Below are positions 6,786 through 64,000 of a stretch of 64,000 nt of DNA, in pieces. Numbering within the stretch: position 1 is the stretch's first letter; each line of letters starts with the position of its first letter. The notes beneath the pieces were generated by a model, which worked only from the letters and a program-made list of their open reading frames with translations, was not told where the DNA came from and did no database searches. A program made the translations under genes and the position numbers. The stretch is from an uncultured virus (IMG/VR IMGVR_UViG_3300033069_000856) (Duplodnaviria; Heunggongvirae; Uroviricota; Caudoviricetes), in IMG/VR virus record IMGVR_UViG_3300033069_000856; one strand, 5' to 3'.

Positions 6786-6982
6786 GTACACTTGAATACA
6801 CTAAAGTGGCATTAGACACTTCAGTGCCGCATACTAGGTTCTTTTGTGATGTTGCATTAGGTACATGGCGAGAGGTTCATTACCTTAGGTACGATGTAAC
6901 ACAGTTGTACTCTAAAGATATAACGAACTGCATCCTTGAATCCAGTCATGAGTCTATGCTCCGTAAATTGAAAATAGGTTAA
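6782..6982 (+). CDS. MxTL-family small protein (MSTLE)
   Basis: ATGA overlap. Confidence 0.7.
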   Translation: MSTLEYTKVALDTSVPHTRFFCDVALGTWREVHYLRYDVTQLYSKDITNCILESSHESMLRKLKIG

Positions 6983-43648: not shown

Positions 43649-43667
43649 TTTTGTTGGAATTTTGCAT

Positions 43668-48438: not shown

Positions 48439-48473
48439 CTAAAGCAGCAGAGCTTAACGGTTCTGCTGGTTTT

Positions 48474-50147
48474 ATGAACACACCTTGCGGTCCTGATATC
48501 AAAACTATTAATGTAGCTAATATTCGCCTTGGCTTTGCAACTAATAGCAGCAGTACTCACAGTGTTGTCATCAATCCCGAAAGGTTCGGAGAAGTGGAGT
48601 GGCCCTTGCAGGAGTTCTTACGCGTTCTTGTGCGTGATTCTTCGGAGAATTACAGGATAACCGACCATAACCATCGGCTGGTCCTGTTCGCCAAGAGCCT
48701 GTACTGCTCCTTGGTTGGCGCCATTGGCAGCCAGGCTGCCCAGGCTACGGTGTGTGAGTTCTGCTGTGTCGACCGGCACGTGCTCACCCACTACGAGACT
48801 GAGGATGAGATCCGCATGGTGATCCCGACAACCAAGGTCGGCGGTGGCCTCAAAGATCCTCGCCCATTCAGCAGGTCGGACAGGGAAGACGTTCACCCCA
48901 CTACGTACTGCGAGGAGTACCTGCGAGACCTGATGAACTTCCTGGTCTCCAACAAGTCCGTTGGCTGGGTCCGCACTCGGGACAATGATGAGGGCCTGGA
49001 CGAAGAGGGTGGTGACCTGCGGGACAGGCTTGCGCCTGGGCACTATGCGGGTACCACCTTGAGCCTGGATCCTCGCAGCCAATGGGTTGCCAGGGCTGAT
49101 GGGCCTTGGTGGGTCCTGATGAACCGCCTGACCGGTGCCAAGCTCCGGGTCAATTTCTCGGATATGGAGGCGACCTACCCGAAGTCTACTCTGCCGGAGT
49201 TGGTGGATATTAAGATCACCGACTTCTGCCCCTACAACTGCTCCTTCTGCTACCAGGGCAGCACCAAGGACGGCAAGCACTCTAAGGAAGCCGACCTGGA
49301 CAAGTACATCCAGGTGCTGAAAGCAATGGGTACGTTCGAAGTGGCGATTGGTGGTGGTGAGCCCACACTCCATCCCAAGTTCAACTTGTTCATCCAGTCC
49401 CTCTACAACGCCGGTATTCAGCCCAACTTCACTACCAGGAACCTGGCGTTCTTCAAGAAGGAAGAGAACCTCAAACTCATCCAGGGCACAGGAGCCAAGT
49501 TCGCCGTCAGCGTCGACACGTTGAAGGCAGCCAAAGAAGCTGTTGAACAGCTTGAGGCCTCTCTGTTTATCCGTGAAATTGCAGACGGTATTAAGGTCCC
49601 ACAAGGGATCAGCTCGTACTGCCGGGATCAGAACCCGTACACCCTGCAGGTGATCCTTGGCAGTGACGTAGAGGCGGTGGTCGACATACTTCTCTACGCC
49701 AGCACTAAGAGCATCAATGTCACCTTGCTCGGGTATAAGACTACCGGGCGAGGCGCTATTGACTTGAAGGTGAAGGGCACCACCATCAAGAAGCTGCAGT
49801 CTGCCTATGCCAAGGAGTTCTCCACTCGGATCGAGCAGCTTCTCGACCAGTACAAGTTCCGCATCTCGATCGGCGTGGATACCCTCGCCATCGAGCAGCT
49901 CCCGTTCCTCAAGGGAGACAAGTACAGATATCAAGTTACAGCGGCTGAGGGGAAGTTCTCCATGTACATTGATGCTGTGGCCAACGTGATGGGCAGCAGC
50001 AGTTACGTGGAGCCGGAAGCCTATGTTCCGATCCCCATGAAAGCCCCCAAGGCTAAGGCTAAGGAATGGGAAGAGATCCCAAACCAGCCTGACCTTGATT
50101 TCCGTGGTATGTATACAGCAATCGCTAAAACTTATGCTGAATGGTGA
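48474..50147 (+). CDS. radical SAM protein with N-terminal GFATNSSS domain
   Basis: CPYNCSFC, AIGGGEP; N-terminal IRLGFATNSSSTHS. Confidence 0.85.
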   Translation: MNTPCGPDIKTINVANIRLGFATNSSSTHSVVINPERFGEVEWPLQEFLRVLVRDSSENYRITDHNHRLVLFAKSLYCSLVGAIGSQAAQATVCEFCCVDRHVLTHYETEDEIRMVIPTTKVGGGLKDPRPFSRSDREDVHPTTYCEEYLRDLMNFLVSNKSVGWVRTRDNDEGLDEEGGDLRDRLAPGHYAGTTLSLDPRSQWVARADGPWWVLMNRLTGAKLRVNFSDMEATYPKSTLPELVDIKITDFCPYNCSFCYQGSTKDGKHSKEADLDKYIQVLKAMGTFEVAIGGGEPTLHPKFNLFIQSLYNAGIQPNFTTRNLAFFKKEENLKLIQGTGAKFAVSVDTLKAAKEAVEQLEASLFIREIADGIKVPQGISSYCRDQNPYTLQVILGSDVEAVVDILLYASTKSINVTLLGYKTTGRGAIDLKVKGTTIKKLQSAYAKEFSTRIEQLLDQYKFRISIGVDTLAIEQLPFLKGDKYRYQVTAAEGKFSMYIDAVANVMGSSSYVEPEAYVPIPMKAPKAKAKEWEEIPNQPDLDFRGMYTAIAKTYAEW

Positions 50148-50776
50148 TTATGGATGAAGAGTTTCAAACAATCCTGAATAATTTGAACGAATGGTTGACT
50201 AAGTTCGACCCTCCGGCAGAAGGGGCCGAACAGCCAGAAGAGTCAGAGCATGGGCAAACAATCGCCATGCTGGCCTTGTTCGAGGTTCTGCTACGAGCAG
50301 CTATTACAAACCCAAGCGTTGCTGTGAACATCATCAACGCATCAAATACGCTCGAGAGTTCTCTGGTTGGAGTACATGGCGGCGTAGCCATGCACAACCA
50401 GGCTGACCTGTTCGTGAATTCCCTGCTTAATACGTGCTTACGTACGCACCTGTTTTCAGAGATATTCAAGAGCATTGCTGATAAGGCGATTAAAGAGTGC
50501 GAGGGTACCAAGAACATCCCAGTTCAAAGTATCGCCGTACCTGATCACCTGTACTACGATCCGTCGATTGCCAAGGCTGCCAGCCAACGATTCTCCAAAG
50601 ACATGTTCCAGCAGACCGGGAACAAGTTTGTAACCGAGGAGAAAAACGAGGATGGTCCAGTAGTGCAGATGGCCCGCATCAGCGCTATGGAGTCGCTGTA
50701 CATTTTCCAGAATGCTCTGGATTCAGCCCGAGACTCGATCACCCAAACGATCGATCGTCTCCGAGAACAAAACTAG
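50141..50776 (+). CDS. hypothetical protein
   Basis: coupled ORF. Confidence 0.6.
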   Translation: MVIMDEEFQTILNNLNEWLTKFDPPAEGAEQPEESEHGQTIAMLALFEVLLRAAITNPSVAVNIINASNTLESSLVGVHGGVAMHNQADLFVNSLLNTCLRTHLFSEIFKSIADKAIKECEGTKNIPVQSIAVPDHLYYDPSIAKAASQRFSKDMFQQTGNKFVTEEKNEDGPVVQMARISAMESLYIFQNALDSARDSITQTIDRLREQN

Positions 50777-50837: not shown

Positions 50838-51302
50838 ATGAAAACACTAGACCTCAAATCGAAGTTTGAGCTTGGTGCAGTAATTCCCAATTATGAGGCT
50901 CTACTAGCCGCATTAAAAGGGAATTACTACATGCTTCCAGGTACTGTTAAATCGTACTTTAGCCATTTTTTTACTCGTTGTTTTGTTAACTTGTTGGGCT
51001 CAATGGTAGGTATGCAGGTTACCTCTACCTGGGATACAACTATTAATTTGACGTGCTCTTGGTCTACAATGTCAGTGGATTTCTCTGTATCCCACATATC
51101 CCCTCTACACTTGTACAACAAGCTCAAGAGGACCTTCTGGCACAAAGGTGTGTTTATTCACGTGGATTATACAAAGCATCAACAGTTTACTGCAGAAGAG
51201 CGTGGATTTTTCACGAACTGGGATAATGGTAGGTTGGTAATTTCATCTAAAGGCAAACGGTTCATGGAGATCTATGAAAACATTACAGGTATCAAGCGTT
51301 AA
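50838..51302 (+). CDS. MxTL-family protein (MKTLD)
   Basis: ATG 50838 after a hairpin; starts cluster 3. Confidence 0.7.
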   Translation: MKTLDLKSKFELGAVIPNYEALLAALKGNYYMLPGTVKSYFSHFFTRCFVNLLGSMVGMQVTSTWDTTINLTCSWSTMSVDFSVSHISPLHLYNKLKRTFWHKGVFIHVDYTKHQQFTAEERGFFTNWDNGRLVISSKGKRFMEIYENITGIKR

Positions 51303-51465
51303 GCTGGACAAGTCTTTAACTTACTTCTATGGCATGTTGACTACGCTCAACATATCCAGTGTTAGGCCTACCCTTGTGGCAAAGTTCTTCGGAGAGTTGC
51401 TTATTACCTTCCGTAGGCAGCACCATATGAACATCGTTTGGTTGAAAGTAGGTACCGTCAAATGA
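51274..51465 (+). CDS. MxTL-family protein (MKTLQ)
   Basis: SD ggag, overlap. Confidence 0.7.
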   Translation: MKTLQVSSVKLDKSLTYFYGMLTTLNISSVRPTLVAKFFGELLITFRRQHHMNIVWLKVGTVK

Positions 51466-51845
51466 AGTGCTTAGTGTCCACTAAGATCGTTGAGGGTATT
51501 TACTTCTGCGTTCAGTTCGAGCCCCAGCAGTGGAGCGAAGAATACTGGTGCAGGACGTTGCTATCTTGGGCATGTGTTCTATCCTCGTGCTCCCAGCCTA
51601 AGCAGGGTGCGATAGGCGCCATCAAAGTACGCTGGCCCAAGAGTTACACCAGTGAAGGTAGGGTGGTTACGTTCATTAACCAAAGAGGTATGGCTACTAG
51701 CAGGATAATTCCTCCTCCGTACAAGAACACTAAGCCAGTTAGGGATATTCGCATAGAAGCGCATAGGGCAGAATTTGACCTGACCACCAGCAACTTAGCC
51801 AAAGGAATGTATGAAGACTCTTCAATACACCCACCCAAACATTGA
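51462..51845 (+). CDS. MxTL-family variant (MKCL)
   Basis: ATGA overlap. Confidence 0.6.
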   Translation: MKCLVSTKIVEGIYFCVQFEPQQWSEEYWCRTLLSWACVLSSCSQPKQGAIGAIKVRWPKSYTSEGRVVTFINQRGMATSRIIPPPYKNTKPVRDIRIEAHRAEFDLTTSNLAKGMYEDSSIHPPKH

Positions 51846-52188
51846 AGTACCTGAGAGAGTATGCGTCGCAGAGGATGACTACGAATTGGGTATTAACAGA
51901 CTGATGAACCAGATTGCTTTTTTACAGAAGCGTAGGGGTAGCCGCAGGTCCAAGGTGCATAACAGGGACAGTTCAGATGACTTTATGCCGGTTACAGGGG
52001 CGACCTACGCCCGTATTACTCCAGCTCGAACTTGGGTTTCTAGCTATGCAGTGACTATGGGCTGGGAAGTACTGATGGAGAGGACATTCAACTACAGATA
52101 CTGTACCCCAGATTATAATAAGCACCCTAATTGGGCAGGTATCTACTCTTGGCCACGTACATTTGACCTACCAGAAACAGAGGACTAA
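51811..52188 (+). CDS. MxTL-family protein (MKTLQ)
   Basis: SD aagga. Confidence 0.7.
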   Translation: MKTLQYTHPNIEVPERVCVAEDDYELGINRLMNQIAFLQKRRGSRRSKVHNRDSSDDFMPVTGATYARITPARTWVSSYAVTMGWEVLMERTFNYRYCTPDYNKHPNWAGIYSWPRTFDLPETED

Positions 52189-52587
52189 ATGAAAACACTC
52201 TACACCATAACTCTTAAATACAGTGATAGGAGTGATGAATATTCCGAAATGTATTCATCAGATTACACCGGCGATCATTTCCTTGAGCTGACATTTAATC
52301 AACGGAAGATTAGGCCAGTGAGGGATACTTATGTGGTTGAAGAGGGATTTGCTGGGGCTGCCTACACAATGAAAGCCGAGTCAGCTCTGAGCAAGCATTC
52401 TTGTGCTAAGCTTGAGGATTGGTGCAGACCTTACCATGTAGGTAGGTTAGATAGTACGTTTGATCCAGAGTGGTACACTCAGCGCTACCCAGAGGCAACC
52501 AAGCTCTGGAAAGATTCGCTTGATCGAGATGAGACCATGGTACTCAGGAGACATTTCATTGAAAACACTTCAGTACACAAATTGTGA
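52189..52587 (+). CDS. MxTL-family protein (MKTLY)
   Basis: abuts upstream stop. Confidence 0.7.
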   Translation: MKTLYTITLKYSDRSDEYSEMYSSDYTGDHFLELTFNQRKIRPVRDTYVVEEGFAGAAYTMKAESALSKHSCAKLEDWCRPYHVGRLDSTFDPEWYTQRYPEATKLWKDSLDRDETMVLRRHFIENTSVHKL

Positions 52588-52825
52588 AGTCTTGGACTGC
52601 AGCACCTCTGGTGGTTATCTGATATCGTATGGGCCTTATATACTTAATGCCTTGTGCACTCCGTGGAGAAAACTGAAATGGTATTCAGTCTTACGATATC
52701 AAGCATTAATATACCGCTTTAGAACACGCGATAGCCTTTATCAGAATGTGGATTGTCGATGCAAACCCAGAACTAAATTCAAGGATTTTGACTTACTGAT
52801 GGAGGTCTCTCATGAAAACACTTGA
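52559..52825 (+). CDS. MxTL-family protein, paralogue group A (TTG start)
   Basis: SD aggag; PWRK, VD.R. Confidence 0.65.
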   Translation: MKTLQYTNCEVLDCSTSGGYLISYGPYILNALCTPWRKLKWYSVLRYQALIYRFRTRDSLYQNVDCRCKPRTKFKDFDLLMEVSHENT

Positions 52826-53072
52826 TTGGGTTAAGCTAGCCAATTCACGAAGAAGGTCTGAGGTCCAGCCGTACACCTATAGGGGTATAACTGACACACT
52901 CATATACCTAAGCAGTCGTTGGCGTAAAACTAAGTTTGACTGGCAGGATACTGACGTTAGGCTTAGTGCCGGAGAGCTCGGTAGATACTGGGTCTTACCT
53001 TTGGACAAACGCTACAGGACTAAAGACTGGGATAGCGTTGCACTGTTCCCCTTATCGGTGGTCGTCAAATGA
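52812..53072 (+). CDS. MxTL-family protein, group A
   Basis: SD ggagg; RWRK, LPLD.RY. Confidence 0.7.
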   Translation: MKTLDWVKLANSRRRSEVQPYTYRGITDTLIYLSSRWRKTKFDWQDTDVRLSAGELGRYWVLPLDKRYRTKDWDSVALFPLSVVVK

Positions 53073-53323
53073 AAACACTGAACCTAACTGTCTTATACAA
53101 ACCTATCCCTAGTAACTACAGTCCAGCTTTAGCGTATAGCATAAAGCTCTGCCTAACCAGGATGTCGCAGCCATGGCATAAACGCTTAAAGATTTGGGAC
53201 TCAAACGTAGTACGGTGGAGTAGGATCGGATTTACACGTATGTATGACCTTCCAGTTGATGATAGGTTCAAGTTCAAAGACTTCGTATCCCAAAAGGACT
53301 TTCTCATCCTGAAGTTCAAATGA
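53069..53323 (+). CDS. MxTL-family protein, group A
   Basis: RMSQPWHK, YDLPVDDRF. Confidence 0.7.
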   Translation: MKTLNLTVLYKPIPSNYSPALAYSIKLCLTRMSQPWHKRLKIWDSNVVRWSRIGFTRMYDLPVDDRFKFKDFVSQKDFLILKFK

Positions 53324-53583
53324 AAACACTCAATTTCGTTAAATTAGCCAAGAATGATATAGTCAGATTTTGCTCTGCCGATAATGAACTGGCAAATATA
53401 CGCTGCATGCTATCTAGAATGTCAAGACCATGGCGTAAGCATTTGTACGTAGGTGAGGGTTCTAGTGTGTCTTGGCACAGAACTGGATTCGTGTATGTGT
53501 ACGATTTGCCAGTGGATAATAGGTACAACGAACTAGATTACTTAACCGATTTACCGCTTGCCCTAACGATCAAAATCAAATGA
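53320..53583 (+). CDS. MxTL-family protein, group A
   Basis: RMSRPWRK, YDLPVDNRY. Confidence 0.7.
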   Translation: MKTLNFVKLAKNDIVRFCSADNELANIRCMLSRMSRPWRKHLYVGEGSSVSWHRTGFVYVYDLPVDNRYNELDYLTDLPLALTIKIK

Positions 53584-53843
53584 GAACACTAGACTGGCCT
53601 CAGTTAAACCCACCACCTCTTACATGGCGTGGCCTATCAGAGGTTGTTCTTAATGAACTAAATGATGCTTTGCACGTGCTTTCACTCCCATGGGCGTCAT
53701 CAAAAACAGTTAATAACCACTGTACGATACACGGCAATCGTTATGGCTTTCTGAATATTTGGGATGCTCATCTGGATATGCGGTATAAGCCCAGGCCGTT
53801 CATGTCAGACAACGCACTCCAATTGTTGATAGAGGTTAAATGA
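53580..53843 (+). CDS. MxTL-family protein, group A (MRTL)
   Basis: SLPW, WDAHLDMRY. Confidence 0.7.
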   Translation: MRTLDWPQLNPPPLTWRGLSEVVLNELNDALHVLSLPWASSKTVNNHCTIHGNRYGFLNIWDAHLDMRYKPRPFMSDNALQLLIEVK

Positions 53844-54142
53844 AAACACTACGAGCCCAAAATCTCAGTTATGCAGAACAGAACTCAGCTAAGACTTTAC
53901 GGTTCTGCTTCAACATGATGACCGGTCTCCGGTACCTGGTGGTGGACCAGCACAAGCCTGGCTCCCTTAAAAGCCTTCCAAGGATGAATCCAAGAGCTGT
54001 AGTCAAGTTCAAGAAGGATAACGTAGAGTGCTCCCGCAGTTCTGCCCGTGGTAAGGAAGAGCAGGCCAAGGAAGGGCACCACTGGTCAAGGCCCATCTAC
54101 GGGGCCTTCTCGATTAACTCAGAACTTGACACCAGTATTTGA
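53840..54142 (+). CDS. MxTL-family protein (MKTLR)
   Basis: ATGA overlap. Confidence 0.7.
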   Translation: MKTLRAQNLSYAEQNSAKTLRFCFNMMTGLRYLVVDQHKPGSLKSLPRMNPRAVVKFKKDNVECSRSSARGKEEQAKEGHHWSRPIYGAFSINSELDTSI

Positions 54143-54172
54143 CTTCTAAGCCAAACCAGGTAAACTACATAA

Positions 54173-54796
54173 ATGGCAACAATTACCCCTAATACTCAGT
54201 ACCAGCCCGGATCAGTTCCTGGATTCGAGAGCTTCACAATGATCCCTACTAGCAAGTCAACCGCTACAGGGGATGATTTCTCTGGTTTGGCTATGGGAGG
54301 GTACTCCCCCCATGAGGCCGCCCCTACCTTGGAATATGATGAAAATGGTAGGGCCTATGGGGTACGTGATCCCCAGACTGGGCGTATCTACAACGTTTCT
54401 AATCTACCGCCCAATGTGACCAGCCAGGACCTCGCTAACTTCATTGCCAGCGTCCGGATGCCCCCTAAGGTACAAAGCGCCCCAGCGGTCTCTAATGCCC
54501 CCAGGAAGCAAGCTATGGAGAAGCCTAGAACCACCTCCAATATTGTCCTGAAGCTTAATGGTATTAAAGTCTCATTAGCGGTATTAGAGGGTATTGTCAG
54601 CGATGACAGGACCAGCTTAATGCTGATATTCCCTTCCGAGAACGAACAACCAATTGAACTAGATAGACAGCTAGAGGGCCTTGTATTCGCCCTCCCCACC
54701 TGTAGCCTAGTGTGTAGCTACTACGGGCAGAAGTTCAACCTGAAGTCCGGTGACACTGCGGTTATCTTTTTGATCGACTCGATCCAGGATAGCTAA
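54173..54796 (+). CDS. hypothetical protein interrupting the MxTL array
   Basis: no MxTL; preceded by ttgact-N16-taaact sigma70-like promoter, possibly leaderless. Confidence 0.65.
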   Translation: MATITPNTQYQPGSVPGFESFTMIPTSKSTATGDDFSGLAMGGYSPHEAAPTLEYDENGRAYGVRDPQTGRIYNVSNLPPNVTSQDLANFIASVRMPPKVQSAPAVSNAPRKQAMEKPRTTSNIVLKLNGIKVSLAVLEGIVSDDRTSLMLIFPSENEQPIELDRQLEGLVFALPTCSLVCSYYGQKFNLKSGDTAVIFLIDSIQDS

Positions 54797-54808
54797 AAGA
54801 AAGCACAA

Positions 54809-55069
54809 ATGAAAACACTGAAGAATCCCCGGTGGCTTCACCTGGGGATTTTGTGGCATTGTATTAAGAACTGGAAAGAGAGCGTTAAGAACCATGGTAT
54901 CCACACCTTCCTACAGTCGACCCACTTAATGGCTCTTGGCAGGAGGGTAGAGCTCCTAAATGACGTAGCCACCTTGTCGAGCTACCCTATGTTCTTCGGT
55001 AGTACTCCTAGTAATAACATATGTAGGAAGACTGAGATTAGGCGGAGGAAGTACCAATTCAAACGCTAA
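54809..55069 (+). CDS. MxTL-family protein (MKTLK)
   Basis: ATG 54809. Confidence 0.7.
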   Translation: MKTLKNPRWLHLGILWHCIKNWKESVKNHGIHTFLQSTHLMALGRRVELLNDVATLSSYPMFFGSTPSNNICRKTEIRRRKYQFKR

Positions 55070-55377
55070 AGTCTTCTGACGTGTTCATTACGCACGAACC
55101 TTTTATAGACAATTACGATACTAGTTATTACCTTTCGCTGCTGTATGTTGAGCAGCAAGTAGACAAGTTTAAACTGAGGTGGGAGTGGTATGCTGTTACT
55201 GGTGCACGTATTAAGTTTGATAACGTGTTAAGAAGGGGAAAATGCTCGCTATTGTTCCAGCACCTATACACAGAAGAAGTCAAGGATAGAAAAGAAATGG
55301 GTATAGGCTGTGCCCTAGCCGACTGGCCCCATATCCCTAGCACACAAATCAAACTCTCAAGTAGGACATTCCTATGA
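55057..55377 (+). CDS. MxTL-family protein with ATT start (ATT-CAA-ACG-CTA), group B
   Basis: SD ggagg; in frame with the 55081 ORF; paralogue of the next gene. Confidence 0.65.
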   Translation: MQTLKSSDVFITHEPFIDNYDTSYYLSLLYVEQQVDKFKLRWEWYAVTGARIKFDNVLRRGKCSLLFQHLYTEEVKDRKEMGIGCALADWPHIPSTQIKLSSRTFL

Positions 55378-55712
55378 AAACACTACACACAACTAATGTT
55401 CTTGTCATCAAAGACAAAGGCTCTCGGCCTCGGCAGCACTCTGCCCTTTCAAGGTTATACGTTGAACAGCCGGAGGTTGACAAGTATAAGGTAGGCTATA
55501 CCTGGTTCGCTTCCTTAGGTGTGTCTATTAAGTTACGTGGGTGGGGCGGAGTAGCAGTTGGCATGCTACGAACTCAGTTATTCGTAGAAGAGAATTACCC
55601 AGGTAGGCAGTTTGGGGCAGGGTCTGGAGTAGACAACTGGCCCCTAGTCTCTAATAACAGGGTTGACCTGAACTGGAACTTCTACAATGAACACTTTACA
55701 CCCGCTTACTAG
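55374..55712 (+). CDS. MxTL-family protein, group B
   Basis: LS.LYVEQ..VDK.K shared with previous gene. Confidence 0.7.
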   Translation: MKTLHTTNVLVIKDKGSRPRQHSALSRLYVEQPEVDKYKVGYTWFASLGVSIKLRGWGGVAVGMLRTQLFVEENYPGRQFGAGSGVDNWPLVSNNRVDLNWNFYNEHFTPAY

Positions 55713-55908
55713 TGCATTGGCTGCGTTCTCATACCCACAGAAAAAGTACTATGCCAGGTATACCGTTACCCATCACAGGTACTACAAGCAATTCAAGCTT
55801 CTGCCAGCAAAGAGGCATTGGCGCTCGCAACTATATGGAGCCTCAATCACTCCAGTAATGTACGGGACAAAAATGCCAGAAGGTTGGAAAGAAAAATGGA
55901 CACACTGA
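55687..55908 (+). CDS. MxTL-family protein (MNTL)
   Basis: overlap. Confidence 0.65.
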   Translation: MNTLHPLTSALAAFSYPQKKYYARYTVTHHRYYKQFKLLPAKRHWRSQLYGASITPVMYGTKMPEGWKEKWTH

Positions 55909-56270
55909 AAAACAAAGACGACTACAGGTTAGCCAGGTTTAATGAGTTGTGCAAACCTGATTCAGATAGAGCGCGTACTGCTAGAGTGCATGCTCAATGT
56001 GACGTCAGTAAATGGTTCTGGCCTAAAACTAGCCCATTCTCTTTGGGAAGGTGTGGCCCTCTCGACCCGATTGCCCTTTCTTCCATATATAACCCCGGGA
56101 TAGCTGCAGTAATCACTGACCTGGACTTCTATGGGGCTAGCATCAAAGACGTTAAGACGCTTTATTACGTTGCTGTAGACACAGTAATTAACGCAGCTTC
56201 GTTAGATAAAGTGTTATGGCACGGCAAGGTAAGAATCACAATCTATAGCTCTAAATATAGAAGGGGCTAA
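55896..56270 (+). CDS. MxTL-family protein (MDTL)
   Basis: overlap. Confidence 0.65.
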   Translation: MDTLKNKDDYRLARFNELCKPDSDRARTARVHAQCDVSKWFWPKTSPFSLGRCGPLDPIALSSIYNPGIAAVITDLDFYGASIKDVKTLYYVAVDTVINAASLDKVLWHGKVRITIYSSKYRRG

Positions 56271-56271
56271 A

Positions 56272-56529
56272 ATGGACTCAACTCTACAAGTAGATTGGGA
56301 TGAACTAGAGCTCAAGGACTTACCGTCAGTTGTACTTGCGAGAGGTACTTGGGATGGGGCATACGCATATAGAGTAACTACCAGGTTTTACAACAAAAGT
56401 ATGCCTATCCGCTCAGCAGCTTCACCCCATAAGTTTCGTTCATTTGTGCTAACTCTTGAGTCCACCCCATCATGGCTAAGTCCTTTGCCCTCTATCTTCT
56501 ATGCCTACAAACCGGAGTTACCCTGGTAA
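56272..56529 (+). CDS. MxTL-family variant (MDSTL)
   Basis: abutting. Confidence 0.65.
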   Translation: MDSTLQVDWDELELKDLPSVVLARGTWDGAYAYRVTTRFYNKSMPIRSAASPHKFRSFVLTLESTPSWLSPLPSIFYAYKPELPW

Positions 56530-56804
56530 TGAAAACACTAAGAGCTCAAACGATTAAAGCAAGAACAGCTACACGACCCCCATTCTTAGGTCACCACCAT
56601 TACTTACAAACATGGGGAGCAAGGGCGGTAGTTGATCCAGCTGCTGCGACCGATGACAACATATGCCGTACTTGCCGAATTCGTAATGGCATCGCTGACA
56701 TACTTCAAGAGGCTGCTGATTATTGCCATTTAGTTTGGGTTAGCCAAGAAGAGTGGCGTAGCTCTAATAGTATGGAGTTCATATGCAAACACTCAAACCG
56801 GTAG
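56529..56804 (+). CDS. MxTL-family protein (MKTLR)
   Basis: TAATG overlap; CxxC. Confidence 0.7.
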   Translation: MKTLRAQTIKARTATRPPFLGHHHYLQTWGARAVVDPAAATDDNICRTCRIRNGIADILQEAADYCHLVWVSQEEWRSSNSMEFICKHSNR

Positions 56805-57001
56805 AAGACCTTTTAGTGGAAGAACTTGTGTTTCCTTGTGTATTACCCAAGAGAACTAAGACGCCGCTATGGCACGGCGATCTAGGTTATAGGGTACTAG
56901 AGCTTCAACGTAAAAATTGTGAGTGTGAAGTTTGTGCAGAAGCTGTAGGATTTTCTGACGTACTACACCTACTTAAAGTAGGGAAATATGAAAACCCTTA
57001 G
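56783..57001 (+). CDS. MxTL-family protein (MQTL)
   Basis: SD ggag; CxCxxC. Confidence 0.7.
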   Translation: MQTLKPVEDLLVEELVFPCVLPKRTKTPLWHGDLGYRVLELQRKNCECEVCAEAVGFSDVLHLLKVGKYENP

Positions 57002-57257
57002 TAACACCATTCAACTAGATGTCTGTATACAAGATGATGCTCCGTTTACTTGGCATAAGATGAACACAAGACATAGCGTAGGTGAGAACTATAAGTCCTA
57101 TTCTTATTCAATAACCATTAGGTCTGGTGGTTGCCAGTGTGGCCAATGTGTTCAAGAGAGGTACCTGATCTCTTTTCATCGTATTAAAGACCTGTATACA
57201 CAAGGAGATCCTCATTACTCATTGCTTGCAGATCCATTACGCTTTGATGAGCTTTAG
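56988..57257 (+). CDS. MxTL-family protein (MKTLS)
   Basis: 14-nt overlap; CxCxxC. Confidence 0.7.
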   Translation: MKTLSNTIQLDVCIQDDAPFTWHKMNTRHSVGENYKSYSYSITIRSGGCQCGQCVQERYLISFHRIKDLYTQGDPHYSLLADPLRFDEL

Positions 57258-57462
57258 TCCTCCGAAGATAATAGATCGGCCATGGCTTATGATCGGCGTA
57301 CACATCACCAACTGGTACATGTGGTTAGAGAACCTAGGTGTTATCCAGTTCGCGTCAGGTGGCTCGGCCTACTTACCTACTATGGGTCGACATTCAATCA
57401 GTGGTATTCGCCCTACTTACGGTTTCATAGATGAAAACCCTCAACTTCAATCTAAGCTTTGA
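57247..57462 (+). CDS. small array protein without a clear MxTL (start uncertain)
   Basis: fills an array slot; RPW motif. Confidence 0.5.
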   Translation: MSFSPPKIIDRPWLMIGVHITNWYMWLENLGVIQFASGGSAYLPTMGRHSISGIRPTYGFIDENPQLQSKL

Positions 57463-57649
57463 TACTGACTTTAATGCCCATGCTGATATATTGCCTACTA
57501 CTCCCAGTCTGTACAAGTGGTTCGCCTGGTCTAAGGTAGTGAAGTTCATACTCAAGTTTCCAAGTTCCACTAGTAATCTAGACCGCAGTGCTCGCCATGT
57601 TTTGCGTATACCAGCAATATACTACCCATTCAGTCCGTGGGAGGATTAA
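57431..57649 (+). CDS. MxTL-family protein (MKTLN)
   Basis: overlap. Confidence 0.7.
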   Translation: MKTLNFNLSFDTDFNAHADILPTTPSLYKWFAWSKVVKFILKFPSSTSNLDRSARHVLRIPAIYYPFSPWED

Positions 57650-57858
57650 TGAAGACACTCCAAGACAGAAAACGATTGCTAGCTAAGAATGGGAAATATG
57701 GGGTATACACTTACCCGCATAAGACGCTTGTTCACTATAGTGTGATCAAGGGAGAGGCGCTCTGGAAGTTAGGGCGTAACTCCCATTCCAGTAAAATATC
57801 CTTTACCCAAGTACTCAAGGCATTTAAGCTATGGGAGCTAGTACGTGCAAACCCTTAA
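57649..57858 (+). CDS. MxTL-family protein (MKTLQ)
   Basis: SD ggagg, TAATG. Confidence 0.7.
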   Translation: MKTLQDRKRLLAKNGKYGVYTYPHKTLVHYSVIKGEALWKLGRNSHSSKISFTQVLKAFKLWELVRANP

Positions 57859-58099
57859 AGACATCTCGATTATTGGCATCATGAACTTCAAGTGCAGGCA
57901 GTTTACGGCCCCAGAATTGGCGCATGAGGACAGCATCATTTATCCTTGGGGCATTAAGATACTAACTCGTGAAGGTCTCTGCTACTTCTTTGACAAATAT
58001 GACGACCGTAAAAAGGTACGCTCGGAGGCGGGCATCACCTACAAGTCAGCCCTGCGGTGCATCCGGTGCCTGCACTTGTTGAAGAAGGTAAAGCTGTGA
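57845..58099 (+). CDS. MxTL-family protein (GTG, MQTL)
   Basis: SD ggag; 14-nt overlap. Confidence 0.7.
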   Translation: MQTLKDISIIGIMNFKCRQFTAPELAHEDSIIYPWGIKILTREGLCYFFDKYDDRKKVRSEAGITYKSALRCIRCLHLLKKVKL

Positions 58100-58368
58100 G
58101 GACTCTAGACTGTATTGGTATCGATTTCAGCTTTAACCCAGATTTCATGATGGCACAATACTATACAAGTGATTTTGGTGTGGAGGCTGGTATACATATT
58201 TACGCATCCGCGCTCTGGGTTGAGTTCTCTACTGTCCCAATTGAGATATTTGCCTTTGTTTGGAGAAAGCTAAATGCACACACTAGAACACCACTCCCAG
58301 ATCATTACCGAGACGTTCCAAGCTCAGTACATCCCGTCATTAGACGGCAGGAGGAGTTGGATCGGTGA
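58096..58368 (+). CDS. MxTL-family protein (GTG, MRTL)
   Basis: GTGA overlap. Confidence 0.65.
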   Translation: MRTLDCIGIDFSFNPDFMMAQYYTSDFGVEAGIHIYASALWVEFSTVPIEIFAFVWRKLNAHTRTPLPDHYRDVPSSVHPVIRRQEELDR

Positions 58369-58563
58369 CTACTGGGTACTCCCAGATGTGACTTAACTTA
58401 GGTACGAAGCCGAGGTAGGTATGTACTTCAAGAAGAAGGTGTTTGTACCCCCTGGTGAGTTTCATGGGTTGGAGTACAACACACTACACTCCAGGACCAA
58501 CTTTCTTAACCCAACATCCATCCCGCACTATCGTTGGGTGCATGTCTACATGGAGGCGTACAA

Positions 58564-58896
58564 ATGGTAACTCTTGACTTGACCCAGTTCCCAGAGCAGT
58601 TACCTAATATCCCAGAGCTAGAGAAGGCCCGCAAGCCGTGGGTGTTCACCAACATATGCGGTCTTTACTCTACAGACCTACTGATAGAGCTTCTTCTATA
58701 CCACTATGCCCTAGGTATGTACGTTAACCCCAATAGTAACTATGTACTGGCAGAGAGGTCGGCCAGGAGACATATGCATAGGCTTTATTTCTCTCAGTCT
58801 TACTTTACCTTCGGACAAGTGAACAAAGCCGTCTACCTGATATTCCGTATCCCTGTGCTGGAAAAGGTGGATATTGCCCTGACTGGTCTAATATAG
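58564..58896 (+). CDS. MxTL-family protein (MVTL)
   Basis: SD ggagg; KPW. Confidence 0.7.
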   Translation: MVTLDLTQFPEQLPNIPELEKARKPWVFTNICGLYSTDLLIELLLYHYALGMYVNPNSNYVLAERSARRHMHRLYFSQSYFTFGQVNKAVYLIFRIPVLEKVDIALTGLI

Positions 58897-58965
58897 GGCT
58901 AATCCAAGCCTGCATAAACCAAGCTAATTTGTTAAAATAGGGGTGACCCTATTTAAAGGAAAACT

Positions 58966-59112
58966 ATGAATACGAACATCAATCAATTTGAGAAGAATGG
59001 CGAATCTCCCCGTTGCAACTGTAAGTGCGCCTGCAGCACTCCTAAGGAGATGCTAGCTAAGAAGGCGGAGGAAGCCAAGAAGGCCGCTGGAAGTGCTTCG
59101 ACACCCAAGTAA
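58966..59112 (+). CDS. 48-aa Cys/Lys-rich peptide
   Basis: SD aagga; MNTNINQFEKNGESPRCNCKCACS...; below ORF-track size cutoff. Confidence 0.55.
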   Translation: MNTNINQFEKNGESPRCNCKCACSTPKEMLAKKAEEAKKAAGSASTPK

Positions 59113-59184
59113 AACAATCGCGATTAGCTCTAGAGCTGATTAGCGTTTGCCTAGAGCTTTAACCCCTATAACCTAAGGAATGGT

Positions 59185-59511
59185 ATGCAAACCATTGACC
59201 ACTCTACCTACACGGTAGCTGAGGTTTTATCGTTCGTGGTTTATTCTGTTCCAGCATACGCTATGGAAAGCGTAGAACACCATTATGCGTATCGTACCAA
59301 TGCTGTGCCCGAGTTTAACTTAGCCGAAGTTAGACTCCCATTCTTTGATCACCTAATGGGAACAGTACTGACATACCACATTGCATGGCGTGAATACATG
59401 CACCCATACAGGTATGTTCATTACATCAATTACCCTGCTGACAGGAGTGGGGGAGATACTAGAAGAATCACATATTTCGGGGTTGGTTTATCTCAAGGAA
59501 AGCATCGATGA
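59185..59511 (+). CDS. MxTL-family variant (MQTI)
   Basis: SD aagga. Confidence 0.65.
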   Translation: MQTIDHSTYTVAEVLSFVVYSVPAYAMESVEHHYAYRTNAVPEFNLAEVRLPFFDHLMGTVLTYHIAWREYMHPYRYVHYINYPADRSGGDTRRITYFGVGLSQGKHR

Positions 59512-59831
59512 AAACACTCGAAGGGCATACAAAGTTGATAGCTGATCTCTGGAAGAGCCTAGAGCCATGGCAGTGCTACAACCCTGCTGCTGTAAAGTAT
59601 GATAACGAGAGAATAGTTGACATTTATAGGCCTGGTGATAGCCTGTTTATAGAGCTTTCCGGGCAAATGCTATCAGTGGTATACGGGATTAGTAACAATA
59701 GTGATGTGAGTAAAGTTGGATCGTGTCACGAGGTTTGGGATACTGAGCGAGGCTGGGAGGGTGGTCACCAGATAGGTTGGAGGTTCAACAGATACTTAAC
59801 AGCGGCAGAGATGGTAAGGGACATCGTATGA
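59508..59831 (+). CDS. MxTL-family protein, group C
   Basis: ATGA; EPW...LFIELSGQM. Confidence 0.7.
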   Translation: MKTLEGHTKLIADLWKSLEPWQCYNPAAVKYDNERIVDIYRPGDSLFIELSGQMLSVVYGISNNSDVSKVGSCHEVWDTERGWEGGHQIGWRFNRYLTAAEMVRDIV

Positions 59832-60073
59832 ACACACTCAAAGACCCCAAAGACCCTGAGACAGCATTTACTTACTCAGCTAATACGCGTTGGGAACTAA
59901 ATTATTCATGCAACATCTGTGGGCATACTGACCTACCAGATAAGGACCTGTTCCAAGAGCTGCACTCTCAAATGAAAATCTACAGCGCCCACTTAAACTC
60001 AGAGGGCTGCTTAGATTTTCGTTCATCTGCAGACAATGGATACAGAACGTCTAGCCTGTGGCAATACGAATGA
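59828..60073 (+). CDS. MxTL-family protein (MNTL), group C
   Basis: ATGA; LFQELHSQM. Confidence 0.7.
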   Translation: MNTLKDPKDPETAFTYSANTRWELNYSCNICGHTDLPDKDLFQELHSQMKIYSAHLNSEGCLDFRSSADNGYRTSSLWQYE

Positions 60074-60381
60074 ACACACTTATCAGTGACTCTTCAATAG
60101 TTGATGAGTTTAAGCAAAACATACCCCCTTGGCGGGCGAATTACTCTCACACAGATATTCAAGAATTAGCTGAGTTAAGAATCAAGAATACGGATAGTCC
60201 TCTGTTCATGACATGCATAGAGATCGTGTACACCCCGTACAACCTTGGCGATGGGTACGGATATCTGGGGTTTGCCGCTTATGAGAATAATCAGCACTTC
60301 CGTCTTGTTCACTTTACGGCTTATGAATCAATAGGCAATTCAAAGAAGCCATGGGAGGTGCTACATGACGACTCTCATTGA
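60070..60381 (+). CDS. MxTL-family protein (MNTL), group C
   Basis: ATGA; PPW. Confidence 0.7.
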   Translation: MNTLISDSSIVDEFKQNIPPWRANYSHTDIQELAELRIKNTDSPLFMTCIEIVYTPYNLGDGYGYLGFAAYENNQHFRLVHFTAYESIGNSKKPWEVLHDDSH

Positions 60382-60679
60382 TCCAAAAATTTGCATACAT
60401 GAGGTGTACAGTTGTTTACCGAAGTGGGTAGAGAGTAGTAAGGTTACGCCAGTGAACTACCACATCCTTAGTTTACACTTAGACGTGCCCTTTCTACCTG
60501 CCCTGTTCAAGCAGATGCTTAGTGTGCATGAGTTCTGTAGTGGTAAGGCTAACTCCCTAGGATGGTGCCTTCATGCTTTAGCTCCTGATAGCATGACAGC
60601 AGATGCTCACTACTATATAGGTCTTATCTACAATCCTAACCTGGAGCATAAAGGTGAATGTATTTTCCCAAGACTCTGA
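60365..60679 (+). CDS. MxTL-family protein (MTTL), group C
   Basis: SD ggagg; PKW...LFKQM. Confidence 0.7.
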   Translation: MTTLIDPKICIHEVYSCLPKWVESSKVTPVNYHILSLHLDVPFLPALFKQMLSVHEFCSGKANSLGWCLHALAPDSMTADAHYYIGLIYNPNLEHKGECIFPRL

Positions 60680-60872
60680 GGTAGTTCTCGAAGAATTCGC
60701 TTCCTATATATCTCCATGGTGCTTTTACTATACAGCCGGTCAGTTCTTGCTAGAGTACTTGCACTCCGAGCTTTACCACAATCAATCGATAAGAAGCGTG
60801 GCTAAGCTGGAAAAGACTGGTGCGTTCGGAACAATAACAGCCGAATGGAGGTACCGTGAGTACTTTGGATAA
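60654..60872 (+). CDS. array protein, group C, lacking MxTL (MNVF)
   Basis: SD ggag; SPW...LEYLHSEL. Confidence 0.6.
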   Translation: MNVFSQDSEVVLEEFASYISPWCFYYTAGQFLLEYLHSELYHNQSIRSVAKLEKTGAFGTITAEWRYREYFG

Positions 60873-61128
60873 AGACAAATTCGACACTGACTTCCTTACT
60901 CCATGGTATGAGCCTTGGAGGTACAACGCAGATAAGCATTTTGCTCACAAGTTTAGCCAACTTTTCAGTGAACTAGAGGAAGAGATGATTAGATACAGGA
61001 GTGAATGCCCGCTAGGTGTTTACTTACTACTAGAACAGCCAGAAAGCGGATGGAGCATAGAACTTCGGCAATGTCACCCGATAGTCTCACGATTCGGCAA
61101 TTGGAGGCAGAATGCCCACGCTAATTGA
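60856..61128 (+). CDS. MxTL-family protein (GTG, MSTL), group C
   Basis: SD ggagg; EPW...LFSELEEEM. Confidence 0.7.
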   Translation: MSTLDKDKFDTDFLTPWYEPWRYNADKHFAHKFSQLFSELEEEMIRYRSECPLGVYLLLEQPESGWSIELRQCHPIVSRFGNWRQNAHAN

Positions 61129-61414
61129 CTGCTTCAGCAAGACCGCAGCATACTCTGTGCTTTGGGATGAGTTCTTCCAATCAATGAGCCCTTGGCAGAC
61201 AGGGCACACTACTAGAGTTCCAATTGAAGGTCTACGCAGGCCCAGGCTGTTGAACTTCTTGTGCTTCCAATTACTAGAGTATGATGCCCGCCATCCAATC
61301 CAAGGTATAGCCCTAATGTACTTTAGGGAGTCTTATTGGATAGTGAGCTACGATAAGTCTAAGTTTAAAGGGAGGGACTATGCAGACCTTGGAATTAAGC
61401 GTTACGGTCGATGA
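61112..61414 (+). CDS. MxTL-family protein (MPTL), group C
   Basis: SD ggagg; SPW. Confidence 0.7.
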   Translation: MPTLIDCFSKTAAYSVLWDEFFQSMSPWQTGHTTRVPIEGLRRPRLLNFLCFQLLEYDARHPIQGIALMYFRESYWIVSYDKSKFKGRDYADLGIKRYGR

Positions 61415-61616
61415 CCGCTTAGTGGATAGCCTGAAAGATTGGTGGGTTTGGAGGTCGATTAAACTATCGACTAGGTCCTTTGACTTAGCCTTCATCAAGT
61501 ACCTATACCATCAAATATTCGAGTACAGGATTAGGCAAGATACCGGGGATGGCGTCTATTTTTATGTGTTTGACATTAGGCCTTTCTACTTTAAAATGTG
61601 GCTGAAGAGGACATAG
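61380..61616 (+). CDS. MxTL-family protein (MQTL)
   Basis: SD ggagg. Confidence 0.7.
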   Translation: MQTLELSVTVDDRLVDSLKDWWVWRSIKLSTRSFDLAFIKYLYHQIFEYRIRQDTGDGVYFYVFDIRPFYFKMWLKRT

Positions 61617-61618
61617 CT

Positions 61619-61870
61619 ATGCAGACACTTGAGTCTTGTGATCCACCTGTGTTGATCATTAACCTAGATCCGCCTTCAGGTAAGTACGCATTCATAGCAG
61701 CAGCCCACCCAGAACTAGACTTACTATATAGGCTTGTCAGGATACTCAGTGACTGGGAGTATAAGAAGCGTAATGACTGGGTAATCTATCCGGATTTCTT
61801 CCATGCATGGTATCCAGACGTCGGGCGAGAGCTCTCTAAAGCCAGATGCTTTAAAAGGTGGCACCCATGA
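61619..61870 (+). CDS. MxTL-family protein (MQTL)
   Basis: SD gagg; ATG 61619. Confidence 0.7.
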   Translation: MQTLESCDPPVLIINLDPPSGKYAFIAAAHPELDLLYRLVRILSDWEYKKRNDWVIYPDFFHAWYPDVGRELSKARCFKRWHP

Positions 61871-62079
61871 AAACACTAAGATACCCAAGAGACTTGAAGC
61901 AGCTCGACTTCAATCTAGTCCCCAATGTAAAGTACTGGCTATCCTATCCACCCCTTTTTCGTGATTTGCTTCTACTTATGTACACGCTCTACGTTACTGC
62001 ATGGGACAGGTGTGTATTCAACCTAGCTGACATCTCTTACAACCAAGCCTCTACTGCCACTTGGAGACGACATAAATGA
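61867..62079 (+). CDS. MxTL-family protein (MKTLR)
   Basis: ATGA. Confidence 0.7.
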   Translation: MKTLRYPRDLKQLDFNLVPNVKYWLSYPPLFRDLLLLMYTLYVTAWDRCVFNLADISYNQASTATWRRHK

Positions 62080-62345
62080 ATACTCTGGACGGCAACACTA
62101 CGGTTAAGCATGACTTACTGTCTTTTGTAGTTCCTTGGAGATTAGAAAGAAAGATTGAGTGGTTTTACGATCCGCACCCTGATACGCCCTTATTAACAGA
62201 GATCTTTGAGCAAATGCACCACGCATTCCTGGAACTTACATACCCCAAGCGTTGTAGTGCTACTACCCGCAGGGCATCTATTACTACGAAGACACGTAGA
62301 GAACCGCTGTTGCACCTGCACCTCAAACAATACATGTTGGTCTAA
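62076..62345 (+). CDS. MxTL-family protein (MNTL), group C
   Basis: ATGA; VPW...IFEQM. Confidence 0.7.
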   Translation: MNTLDGNTTVKHDLLSFVVPWRLERKIEWFYDPHPDTPLLTEIFEQMHHAFLELTYPKRCSATTRRASITTKTRREPLLHLHLKQYMLV

Positions 62346-62347
62346 CC

Positions 62348-62602
62348 TTGAAAACACTAACACTGTACGAACCTATTGACCTTGACATTAAGAGATTACC
62401 CGGCCCTGCCTACATAGTAGATATGCTGCGTAGCAGGCTAGAGATATTTCAGCAATTAGCTACTGCGGCGAAGTACATTGTAGAAGCGATTGACCCATCA
62501 CGTAGGAAGTACAACTTCCACGCTTATGGCTGGGGAAGTACCGAGACAGTCTCTGGGATTTTCACTGAATACAAGGAAGTCATCTTATTCCTTAGGCACT
62601 AA
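62348..62602 (+). CDS. MxTL-family protein (TTG, MKTL)
   Basis: 2 nt after upstream stop. Confidence 0.65.
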   Translation: MKTLTLYEPIDLDIKRLPGPAYIVDMLRSRLEIFQQLATAAKYIVEAIDPSRRKYNFHAYGWGSTETVSGIFTEYKEVILFLRH

Positions 62603-62829
62603 TGAAAACACTCCAACTAGAGCTGATAGCTCCGTTCTCAAATATTGGCATAGACACTCTTTGGTACTACGCAAGTCACCGTACAGTAATAGGTAACCTA
62701 CCAACTGACTGTAAAGGGTTCATGATGTTTGGGACTGTGATATGTGATTATCTAAGCGTACACCAGCTATACGCTATCAATCTATTCACACACTCTAGCT
62801 TGCGCCTAAGGCAGAAGGTATGGGCATGA
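62602..62829 (+). CDS. MxTL-family protein (MKTLQ)
   Basis: TAATG. Confidence 0.7.
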   Translation: MKTLQLELIAPFSNIGIDTLWYYASHRTVIGNLPTDCKGFMMFGTVICDYLSVHQLYAINLFTHSSLRLRQKVWA

Positions 62830-63086
62830 ACACACTTATTACATTTGACGTACTTTCTACTGTTCAAAAACAACCAATAGAAGACTTCTATAAAGTCCTA
62901 AATGTGTGCAGGACCAGGTTCTCCGCATTTGACTACGGTATAAAACCCCACACTATGTACAACTGGTGGGGTTTTGAGTTCTCTAACACACGCGTGTACT
63001 CAATGCTGGTGTTGGAAGGTCCCAGAAAAATGGCCTTTCATTGGTGGGTGACAAGTATAATGGAGGCACGCTATGCCGACCCTTGA
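62826..63086 (+). CDS. MxTL-family protein (MNTL)
   Basis: ATGA. Confidence 0.7.
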   Translation: MNTLITFDVLSTVQKQPIEDFYKVLNVCRTRFSAFDYGIKPHTMYNWWGFEFSNTRVYSMLVLEGPRKMAFHWWVTSIMEARYADP

Positions 63087-63309
63087 GTACATTGCCGTCC
63101 AATTGATCGTGTTTGACGAGCCGCTATACAAGTTTAATCATGTATTCGATCTTTACAGAACAGGTCAAGTAGGCTGCTACTTTGACAGCTGTCCTTTGAA
63201 GCACGGTGAGTGGATATTACTTACACATGTACGCTGGCGTTCACTGTGTGTGACGTACTTACCCGAAGTAGCTTTCCAATACTCCTTAACCAGATGGTGG
63301 CTAGTCTAA
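63073..63309 (+). CDS. MxTL-family protein (MPTL)
   Basis: SD ggagg; 14-nt overlap. Confidence 0.7.
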   Translation: MPTLEYIAVQLIVFDEPLYKFNHVFDLYRTGQVGCYFDSCPLKHGEWILLTHVRWRSLCVTYLPEVAFQYSLTRWWLV

Positions 63310-63590
63310 TGCACACACTCAAATCACATGCTAATATGTTTGTCGGATTTGACACAATCTCCATTGCGCCTTGGAGCAGGGTGTACGAGCATCGCGAAAA
63401 CCCGCATACCCATAAAGGCTATTACGTTGATAATGGTAAGTTTGAGACGGAAAGAACAATCTTAGGTCGTGATTTCGTACTTCGTTACGGGTTCTGCAGC
63501 TTTAACTATGGCCCGTTTGAGCAGCTGGCGTGGTGGACTTCGCAATACACTGACTATACTGAGAATGCGCTAGGAGAGAATAGGGTATGA
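63309..63590 (+). CDS. MxTL-family protein (MHTL)
   Basis: TAATG; APW. Confidence 0.7.
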   Translation: MHTLKSHANMFVGFDTISIAPWSRVYEHRENPHTHKGYYVDNGKFETERTILGRDFVLRYGFCSFNYGPFEQLAWWTSQYTDYTENALGENRV

Positions 63591-63847
63591 AAACACTCAA
63601 GTCCGGGATACAAAAGTTAACCCCGCCATCTATGAGCTCCATGACACGTAATAACCTTGTTGCGGTTGATTACTTAAAAAGCAAGTGCAGCTTGTTACAG
63701 AACTTAGCTGCATTGTGCTGGGAGCTTGACGCCCAAGGAGTAATGGAGGCATTTGCTTACCCAAGTAATAGGCCCCGTATCTGCGAGGTAATATGGATAG
63801 GATTTGATAATGACTCATACCACAGATTGTCAAGGCTCGCACAATGA
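63587..63847 (+). CDS. MxTL-family protein (MKTLK)
   Basis: ATGA. Confidence 0.7.
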   Translation: MKTLKSGIQKLTPPSMSSMTRNNLVAVDYLKSKCSLLQNLAALCWELDAQGVMEAFAYPSNRPRICEVIWIGFDNDSYHRLSRLAQ

Positions 63848-64000
63848 ACACGCTCAACCCCAGTACTTCAATCGAGCTGATTGGTTTTGATGCTGCTCTA
63901 GATATCAGCTATATCTTAATTCAGTCCCTAGAGTTCACCGAGGCTTGGAACACATTTAGGATGTATTACACCAATAGGCCTCACTTGAGGATTGGCTATC
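63844..64000 (+). CDS. MxTL-family protein (MNTL), runs off the window end
   Basis: ATGA overlap; open to the window edge. Confidence 0.6.
   Translation, partial: MNTLNPSTSIELIGFDAALDISYILIQSLEFTEAWNTFRMYYTNRPHLRIGY

Follow-up and report, generated by a model that had tools for sequence, protein, structure and literature searches.

Introduction

Very short N-terminal motifs on large families of fast-diverging small proteins are known from oomycetes (RxLR) and Plasmodium (PEXEL), where they stand behind a signal peptide and have a role in eukaryotic secretion; to our knowledge, nothing comparable has been described for phages. Here we describe an array of small genes that share the N-terminal tag M-x-T-L, followed by largely unrelated protein bodies, in a 64,000-nucleotide stretch of DNA (the window) from a large uncultured tailed phage (IMG/VR record IMGVR_UViG_3300033069_000856). 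The closest described phage system is the set of internal proteins of T4. According to passages of PMC8442874, these proteins are highly basic, and fusion to their capsid targeting sequence (CTS) of ~10 residues leads to retention of any protein in the head; passages of PMC3012670 present them as a highly diverse, defence-countering set that has only the CTS in common. As with T4 IPI, IPII and IPIII, a short N-terminal peptide is found here on otherwise diverse small proteins of a polymorphic locus.

Results

It is evident from the tiling of positions 50838-64000 that small genes follow one another head-to-tail on the + strand and that 39 of the 46 start with M-x-T-L. The original prediction, made from the sequence alone, had put their number at about 40 ORFs (open reading frames) over 13 kb, which agrees well with this count. 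The seven genes without the exact tag are mostly near-variants of it: MKCL at 51462, MATI at 54173, MFIT at 55081, MDSTL at 56272, MNTN at 58966, MQTI at 59185 and MNVF at 60654. When the tag pattern is defined as NNN-ACN-(CTN/TTR) directly after a start codon, in a frame that stays open for 40 codons or more, the window contains 58 matches on the + strand and 4 on the - strand. Forty-one of the + strand matches lie at or after 50838, two of which were not taken as genes (51337, internal to 51274, and 58274, a 40-amino-acid overlapping ORF). The genes overlap at 34 of the 46 array junctions, and the predicted packing by ATGA, TAATG and short overlaps is indeed seen, with 15 ATGA overlaps, 4 TAATG junctions, 15 longer overlaps of 13-35 nucleotides and a few short gaps. 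The array also continues past the window edge, as had been foreseen: its last gene, at 63844, is still open at the window end, and contigs assembled from public runs extend 6.4-7.9 kb further. The array is more AT-rich than the rest of the window (GC content at third codon positions 0.49 vs. 0.57). In one gap of the array lies an untagged 48-amino-acid ORF (58966-59112), which is Cys/Lys-rich and has a CNCKCAC motif and a Lys/Ala-rich tail.

The excess of the tag is real and far beyond chance. Among the 139 + strand starts in the array with at least 60 open codons, residues 3-4 are TL in 38, whereas the next most frequent dipeptide reaches a count of 2. At a cut-off of 50 codons, TL occupies residues 3-4 in 39 of 176 starts (22%) in the array and in 16 of 726 (2.2%) in the rest of the window, the latter mostly in two mini-clusters of tagged genes (Table 1). 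The corresponding figure in 160 control loci (~2.4 Mb), taken from around distant radical SAM homologues in other large phages, is 307 of 57,034 (0.54%), and never more than five such starts are found per strand.

The array ORFs look like coding sequences. For 38 out of 38 array genes, a codon-frame model that had been trained on 23 core genes favours the frame as called, and it tracks a shifted reading in 38 of 38 when the frame is moved by +1 and in 35 of 38 when it is moved by +2. On the + strand, stretches of 60 codons or more without a stop sum to 1.15 times the length of the region, compared with a mean of 0.40 and a maximum of 0.62 in shuffled sequences. A G-rich Shine-Dalgarno (SD)-like signal is present at -12 to -8 of the tagged starts, and in 8 of 10 exact look-ups the protein called by IMG, an independent gene caller, is identical from the M-x-T-L start. 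The unanimous frame preference in particular speaks for coding rather than for untranslated ORFs, the case in which the original prediction would have fallen. The array contains 12 promoter-like sites (23.4 expected) and 12 terminator-like sites (12.2 expected), and this lack of enrichment fits long polycistronic transcription.

We computed the information content at the gene starts over all 46 tiled genes; since the untagged genes are included, the codon pattern is not forced by motif selection. At codon positions 1/2/3 the values are 0.73/0.91/0.25 for codon 2, 1.50/1.64/0.41 for codon 3, 1.00/1.64/0.05 for codon 4 and 0.26/0.60/0.11 for codon 5, and there is nothing from codon 6 onward. No position in 40 other genes of the window has an information content above 0.19. 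Over five codons, the constraint is therefore patterned like the genetic code, namely M, then mostly K/N/Q, then T, L and a polar residue, with an A at +14 in 37 of the 49 tagged starts. As had been predicted, all four Thr codons and all six Leu codons are used in these 49 starts, and the start codons comprise ATG (44), GTG (3) and TTG (2); the seven codon examples given originally are all correct. The wobble position of Leu4 is random. Leu codons beginning with T always end in a purine in the tagged starts (8 TTR), and the sole plausible ACN-TTY start is MKTF at 44540. Replacements of residue 4 are conservative (I, I and F). The tag is found behind strong SD sites (23 genes) as well as behind weak or absent ones (25 genes). 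The codon-periodic constraint, the free wobble and the independence of SD strength and start codon argue for selection on the peptide.

These results bear on the earlier claim that the peptide rather than the DNA is conserved, which stands in its first half and needs qualification in its second. Codon periodicity, the free Leu wobble, the I/I/F replacements and an orthologue that keeps the tag (see below) all speak for it, and the over-use of ACA and CTN codons shows some constraint on the DNA as well. We conclude that the peptide is selected and that, in addition, A-rich codons (AAA and ACA) are preferred. The simplest explanation of this A-rich codon choice is selection that keeps the start region of tightly coupled genes open and efficiently initiated.

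Beyond the tag, the bodies of the tagged proteins are mostly unrelated to one another as far as sequence comparison can tell. All-against-all BLASTP of the 58 pattern matches gives six pairs, one of them trivial, and phmmer with the first five residues cut off and with reversed decoys gives five pairs. Three paralogue groups (A, B and C; Table 1) cover 16 genes and the remaining tagged genes (~35) are singletons, in line with the prediction that the proteins cannot be aligned past residue 4 except within local paralogue groups. Group B was defined by an iterated profile search, again without the first five residues and with reversed decoys. Groups A and B show no relation to each other by hhalign (probability ~1%). 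It is also evident that the body can be kept without the tag, which is the case in two group members, 60654 (MNVF) and 55081. Among 55 proteins searched, Pfam and PHROGs each gave a single weak, sub-threshold match in all, and a search of the group A profile and of the 212-amino-acid protein at 43668 against 5.8 billion proteins returned only records of this same phage. Some genes have longer 5′ ends in common: 53839-53861 and 56528-56550 are 91% identical over 23 nucleotides and both encode MKTLRAQ in otherwise unrelated genes, 60070 and 62826 share ATGAACACACTTAT, and 55684 and 63841 share MNTL-x-P. Either exchange or a recent duplication could account for such longer common 5′ ends.

The tagged proteins are soluble, with a transmembrane-like segment in only 1 of 47, and have a median length of 87 amino acids (range 63 to 212). 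Their isoelectric points have a median of 8.9, being above 8 in 26 of 47 and below 6 in 8 of 47. They contain 3.0% Trp and 5.5% Tyr, compared with 1.5-1.8% and ~3% in other proteins of the window. They are also poorer in Ala, Gly and Glu than the other proteins of the phage. AlphaFold2 (AF2) gives an unreliable model for group A, with a predicted local distance difference test score (pLDDT) of 45, and a weak one for group B (pLDDT 60), in which residues 1-5 score below 50 and precede a helix at residues 5-24. Foldseek against the PDB found nothing at E ≤ 0.001, and the ESM Atlas held no usable match for 59508.

The tag is not confined to the main array, as the two smaller clusters at 5947-6982 and 42575-45502 add nine tagged genes; the IMG gene call for 43668 in the second cluster has the same start as ours. 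The tag is absent from all 23 core genes of the reference set, so it is not equally common among the core genes of the phage. Among ~20 annotated genes it occurs in one only, the HNH endonuclease gene at 2685 (MGTL). The earlier statement that the recognisable enzyme genes lack the tag thus applies to the core genes and fails for this endonuclease. The thymidylate kinase (15360-15938) starts with M-K-T-R, in which M-K-T is present and Leu4 is not; MKT alone is therefore not a mark of the class. The full tag is specific to one class of orphan proteins, which numbers at least 48; they are small, soluble, rich in aromatic residues and mostly basic.

The sole detectable relative of the array proteins is P0133 (90 amino acids), which in a full HMMER search is 69% identical to the first array protein over residues 1-52. 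It begins with MKTLHHRF where the protein of the window has MKTLDLKS, i.e., the two agree at each of residues 1-4 and at none of residues 5-8. A relative of the radical SAM enzyme encoded upstream of the array, P0005, is 67% identical to it. P0133 and P0005 are each reported on a contig of 4,626 nucleotides, which suggests that synteny beside the array is probably kept. With P0133 as a query, nothing was found in viral contigs, nor did the radical SAM protein alone as a query find anything in viral and metagenome contigs. An alignment of radical SAM proteins (A4) yielded 80 viral, 80 metagenome and 19 genome loci, all with at most 38% identity except one (L088), which has a 48% match over an 84-residue fragment. 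No tag array was found in the 160 viral and metagenome loci, where TL starts never exceed five per strand (the 19 genome loci were not scanned), and a search of viral contigs for two tag 11-mers spaced 240-270 nucleotides apart returned eight loci without an array. In one unrelated, low-GC IMG/VR contig (L003), which came up by chance in the DNA pattern search, three consecutive small genes at ~2531-3240 on the - strand start with MKTLKDI and are tandem paralogues. No array of this size had been recognised when the locus was first noticed, and our literature search likewise found no description of such an array.

The features of the window are listed in Table 1. The family A DNA polymerase, identified through Pfam and PHROGs, is fused to an N-terminal UDG-like domain and is split by an HNH endonuclease gene in what looks like a homing-endonuclease-associated gene split; its best tblastn matches are T5-like phages, at ~25% identity. 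Pfam and PHROGs further identify in the window a UvsX-like recombinase, Dda-like and other helicases, RNase H and a RuvC-like resolvase, as well as ThyX, thymidylate kinase and dUTPase. Neither collection gave a recognisable structural gene module, protease or adaptor in the window, and a search of the window for tRNAs and Rfam families found none. For the product of the untagged gene at 50141, directly upstream of the array, the ESM Atlas had no usable match and a PDB sequence search no meaningful match. Two islands, 12001-14000 and 46001-48000, are GC-rich (0.59-0.60 vs. 0.44-0.51 elsewhere), and the second contains a DUF6745 protein (46074-47291). The genes of these islands were possibly acquired horizontally. 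Three pieces (45793-45830, 47809-47868 and 49245-49446) match contigs of other organisms in public runs.

No match to positions 44001-52000 was found among GenBank phages by blastn. Genes of the window are present in the protein collection on contigs of 72,293 and 71,882 nucleotides, and exact look-ups revealed a second contig that is near-identical, with 1 residue out of 212 differing. Four public runs from two studies, one labelled riverine metagenome, contain the stretch with zero differences, so they offer no natural variation for analysis.

Table 1. Positions of the tagged genes and of other features in the 64,000-nucleotide window
Feature	Position	Strand	Remarks
Split DNA polymerase, part 1	264-2681		Matches phrog_17 positions 476-1071
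HNH endonuclease gene	2685-3599		Starts MGTL; sits exactly between the two polymerase parts
Split DNA polymerase, part 2	3747-4331		Matches phrog_17 positions 1074-1235
Mini-cluster	5947..6982	+	5 tagged genes (MKTL, MKTL, MQTL, METL, MSTL); 3′ of split DNA polymerase; no Pfam/PHROG match
Ribonucleotide reductase large subunit with intein	31253-34846		Pfam Intein_splicing and LAGLIDADG_3 (LAGLIDADG domain)
Second mini-cluster	42575..45502	+	MKTL 42575, MKTL 42934, MKTL 43668 (212 amino acids), near-variant MKTF 44540, MFTL 45083
Radical SAM enzyme gene	48411..50147	+	Anchor for search of relatives
Untagged gene directly 5′ of array	50141..50776	+	211 amino acids; no family, no structural match
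Main array	50838..64000	+	46 tightly packed small genes, 39 tagged; runs past window end
First array gene	50838..51302	+	Sole array gene with detectable orthologue (P0133)
Paralogue group A	52559..53843	+	5 genes of ~86 amino acids; common S-x-P-W-R-K and DLP-x-D-x-RY motifs
Near-variant gene M-A-T-I	54173..54796	+	207 amino acids; no family; PDB sequence search without meaningful match
Paralogue pair C	55081..55712	+	55081 untagged MFIT, 55374 MKTL; phmmer E = 4.6e-10 without first 5 residues
Paralogue group B	59508..63590	+	9 genes with P-W motif: 59508, 59828, 60070, 60365, 60654, 60856, 61112, 62076, 63309; unrelated tagged genes between

Discussion

We propose that M-[K/N/Q...]-T-L-[polar] serves at the protein level as an N-terminal recognition tag for a common reader, a view to which we give a probability of roughly 55%. 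The phage lineage would keep the tag on a class of orphan small proteins and away from its replication and nucleotide-metabolism genes, and one common partner would read the free N-terminus and thereby give all tagged proteins the same fate. On top of this peptide constraint, A-rich codons would serve to keep the starts open and efficiently initiated. A more specific version is that a four-residue code (Met-x-Thr-Leu plus a polar residue) is read by a dedicated reader and marks more than 50 orphan proteins for one fate, either as an effector library that is packaged beforehand, co-injected and about ten times the size of the T4 internal-protein set, or through a phage-run, N-recognin-like system of sorting or timing; we hold this version tentatively, as possible rather than probable. 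As for the fate itself, our best guess by analogy with the T4 CTS would be loading into the procapsid and co-injection with the DNA, which a basic and soluble tagged set would fit, and which we nevertheless regard as somewhat doubtful. Timed proteolysis, or hand-over to an unfoldase, ranks next and seems unlikely, and docking to another common hub would come third.

Several observations weigh against the recognition tag. The codon choice is biased: ACA is used for Thr3 in 27 of 49 tagged starts compared with 29% in the gene bodies (P = 2e-4), CTN and TTR occur at 41:8 where 62:38 is expected (P = 0.002), and AAA and AAG at 22:3 against a background of 43:57, which points to some nucleotide-level selection on the same bases. 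The window has no structural module, and the function of the tag is one that we infer entirely. Only 4-5 residues are conserved here, unlike the ~10 of the T4 CTS, and no cleavage motif follows the tag, unlike the CTS, which is cut off by the head protease. From residue 6 to residue 16, no fixed position shows an enriched residue (top count 10 of 48, Glu never dominant). The array lies behind the replication genes on the same strand without an excess of promoters, so it looks early or middle rather than late. The tag is kept in a single orthologue pair, in which identity at 4 of 4 residues is not significant alone given 69% identity overall. Furthermore, the choice of gene starts in the tiling was guided by the motif, 2 of the 10 exact look-ups found no match, and the gene at 50838 begins 10 codons further upstream in its database copy, P0132, although its orthologue in another phage, P0133, has been called from MKTL.

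The codon bias could be explained if AUG-AAA-ACA-CUN-VAN, or the nascent M-K-T-L, were a host-specific optimum for initiation or early elongation in a coupled polycistronic array, the mature N-terminus having no function of its own. Such a translation-ramp role is a serious rival, although we think it probably not the answer. Apart from the preference for AAA and ACA, the frequent overlapping junctions fit coupled translation, and the ACA excess is larger in genes with weak SD sites (17 of 25, P = 6e-5) than in those with strong ones (10 of 23, P = 0.17), with the two classes not differing significantly (P = 0.14, Fisher's exact test). The A-rich start also agrees with passages of PMC12661326 in which A content within the first six codons affects yield, and passages of PMC6920384 report that codons 3-5 can strongly change yield through both nucleotides and amino acids. 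The favourable motifs reported in the latter passages are K/N-Y/I, whereas codons 3-4 here encode Thr-Leu; the Leu wobble is wholly free, neither the C at +10 nor the T at +11 is A-rich, T-L is absent from all 23 core genes of this phage, and genes with strong SD sites keep the tag to the same degree. The tag resembles the translation-enhancing starts in these passages in having AAA at codon 2, an A-rich codon 3 and a signal in the first five codons only, and differs from them in a Leu codon that is not A-rich and in a signal limited to one gene class. A less probable alternative is that the tagged proteins form one hyper-divergent paralogue family, spread by tandem duplication, in which MxTL is the last recognisable piece and a structural part of a common fold. 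The similar sizes around the median, the tandem arrangement, the three local paralogue groups with their 16 genes, and the P-W motif, which recurs in groups A and B and is visible by eye in some singletons, would be in keeping with common descent. Against such a family stand the ~1% hhalign probability between groups A and B, the finding that most members are singletons even in profile searches, the lengths from 63 to 212 amino acids, the low-confidence residues 1-5 ahead of the first helix in the weak group B model, and 60654 and 55081, which keep the body without the tag.

Selection could also act on the DNA as a junction. In T4-type phages, PeSL cassettes consist of intergenic promoter and stem-loop repeats that border novel small ORFs in plastic regions. 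By comparison, the 11-mer ATGAAAACACT might be a micro-homology site for the gain, loss and swap of cassettes, with the peptide as a by-product. Every array repeat family with at least three copies has the tag-coding sequence at its centre, and the longer common 5′ ends of the unrelated genes at 53839 and 56528 could be read in the same way. Like the PeSL repeats, a short conserved sequence recurs here at the borders of small ORFs; unlike them, it lies within the coding start, and there are no flanking promoter or stem-loop (hairpin) repeats and no excess of promoters or terminators. The exact 11-mer is present in only ~13 of 49 starts, the wobble positions vary freely and 11 nucleotides are very short for homologous exchange, so we consider a DNA-level junction quite improbable. 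Least probable of all is that the ORFs are untranslated and the motif is a non-coding repeat. No RNA run is among the public runs listed for the stretch, which leaves room for this idea, but the called frame is preferred in every array gene modelled, the stop-free sum (1.15) is far above that of shuffles, SD-like sites stand at the right distance, and one orthologue is conserved at the protein level.

Should the recognition tag prove to be an address label, it would provide a sequence-only way to pick out the whole co-regulated accessory protein set of a phage, and ~50 orphans beyond the reach of homology search would become candidate anti-defence or host-takeover factors. The four residues would also offer a handle for capturing the reader and for loading foreign proteins, and the capsid-targeting idea from T4, where few genes are involved, would be widened to a large library. 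If the tag is a translation signal instead, it would be an unusually strict and class-specific early-elongation code in a natural system.

The comparison with known systems can be summarized as follows. The T4 internal proteins are non-essential and basic, and their CTS begins with M-K-T; sequence homology to the CTS ends at MKT, and packaging is a putative fate of the tagged proteins here. T4 has few CTS genes, whereas this phage has at least 48 tagged genes. With the RxLR and PEXEL families the array shares a very short N-terminal motif on unrelated bodies; unlike in those families, nothing related to export is implied here. We see the M-x-T-L array as a new variation on a known idea, in which polymorphic phage proteins have an N-terminal targeting peptide in common.

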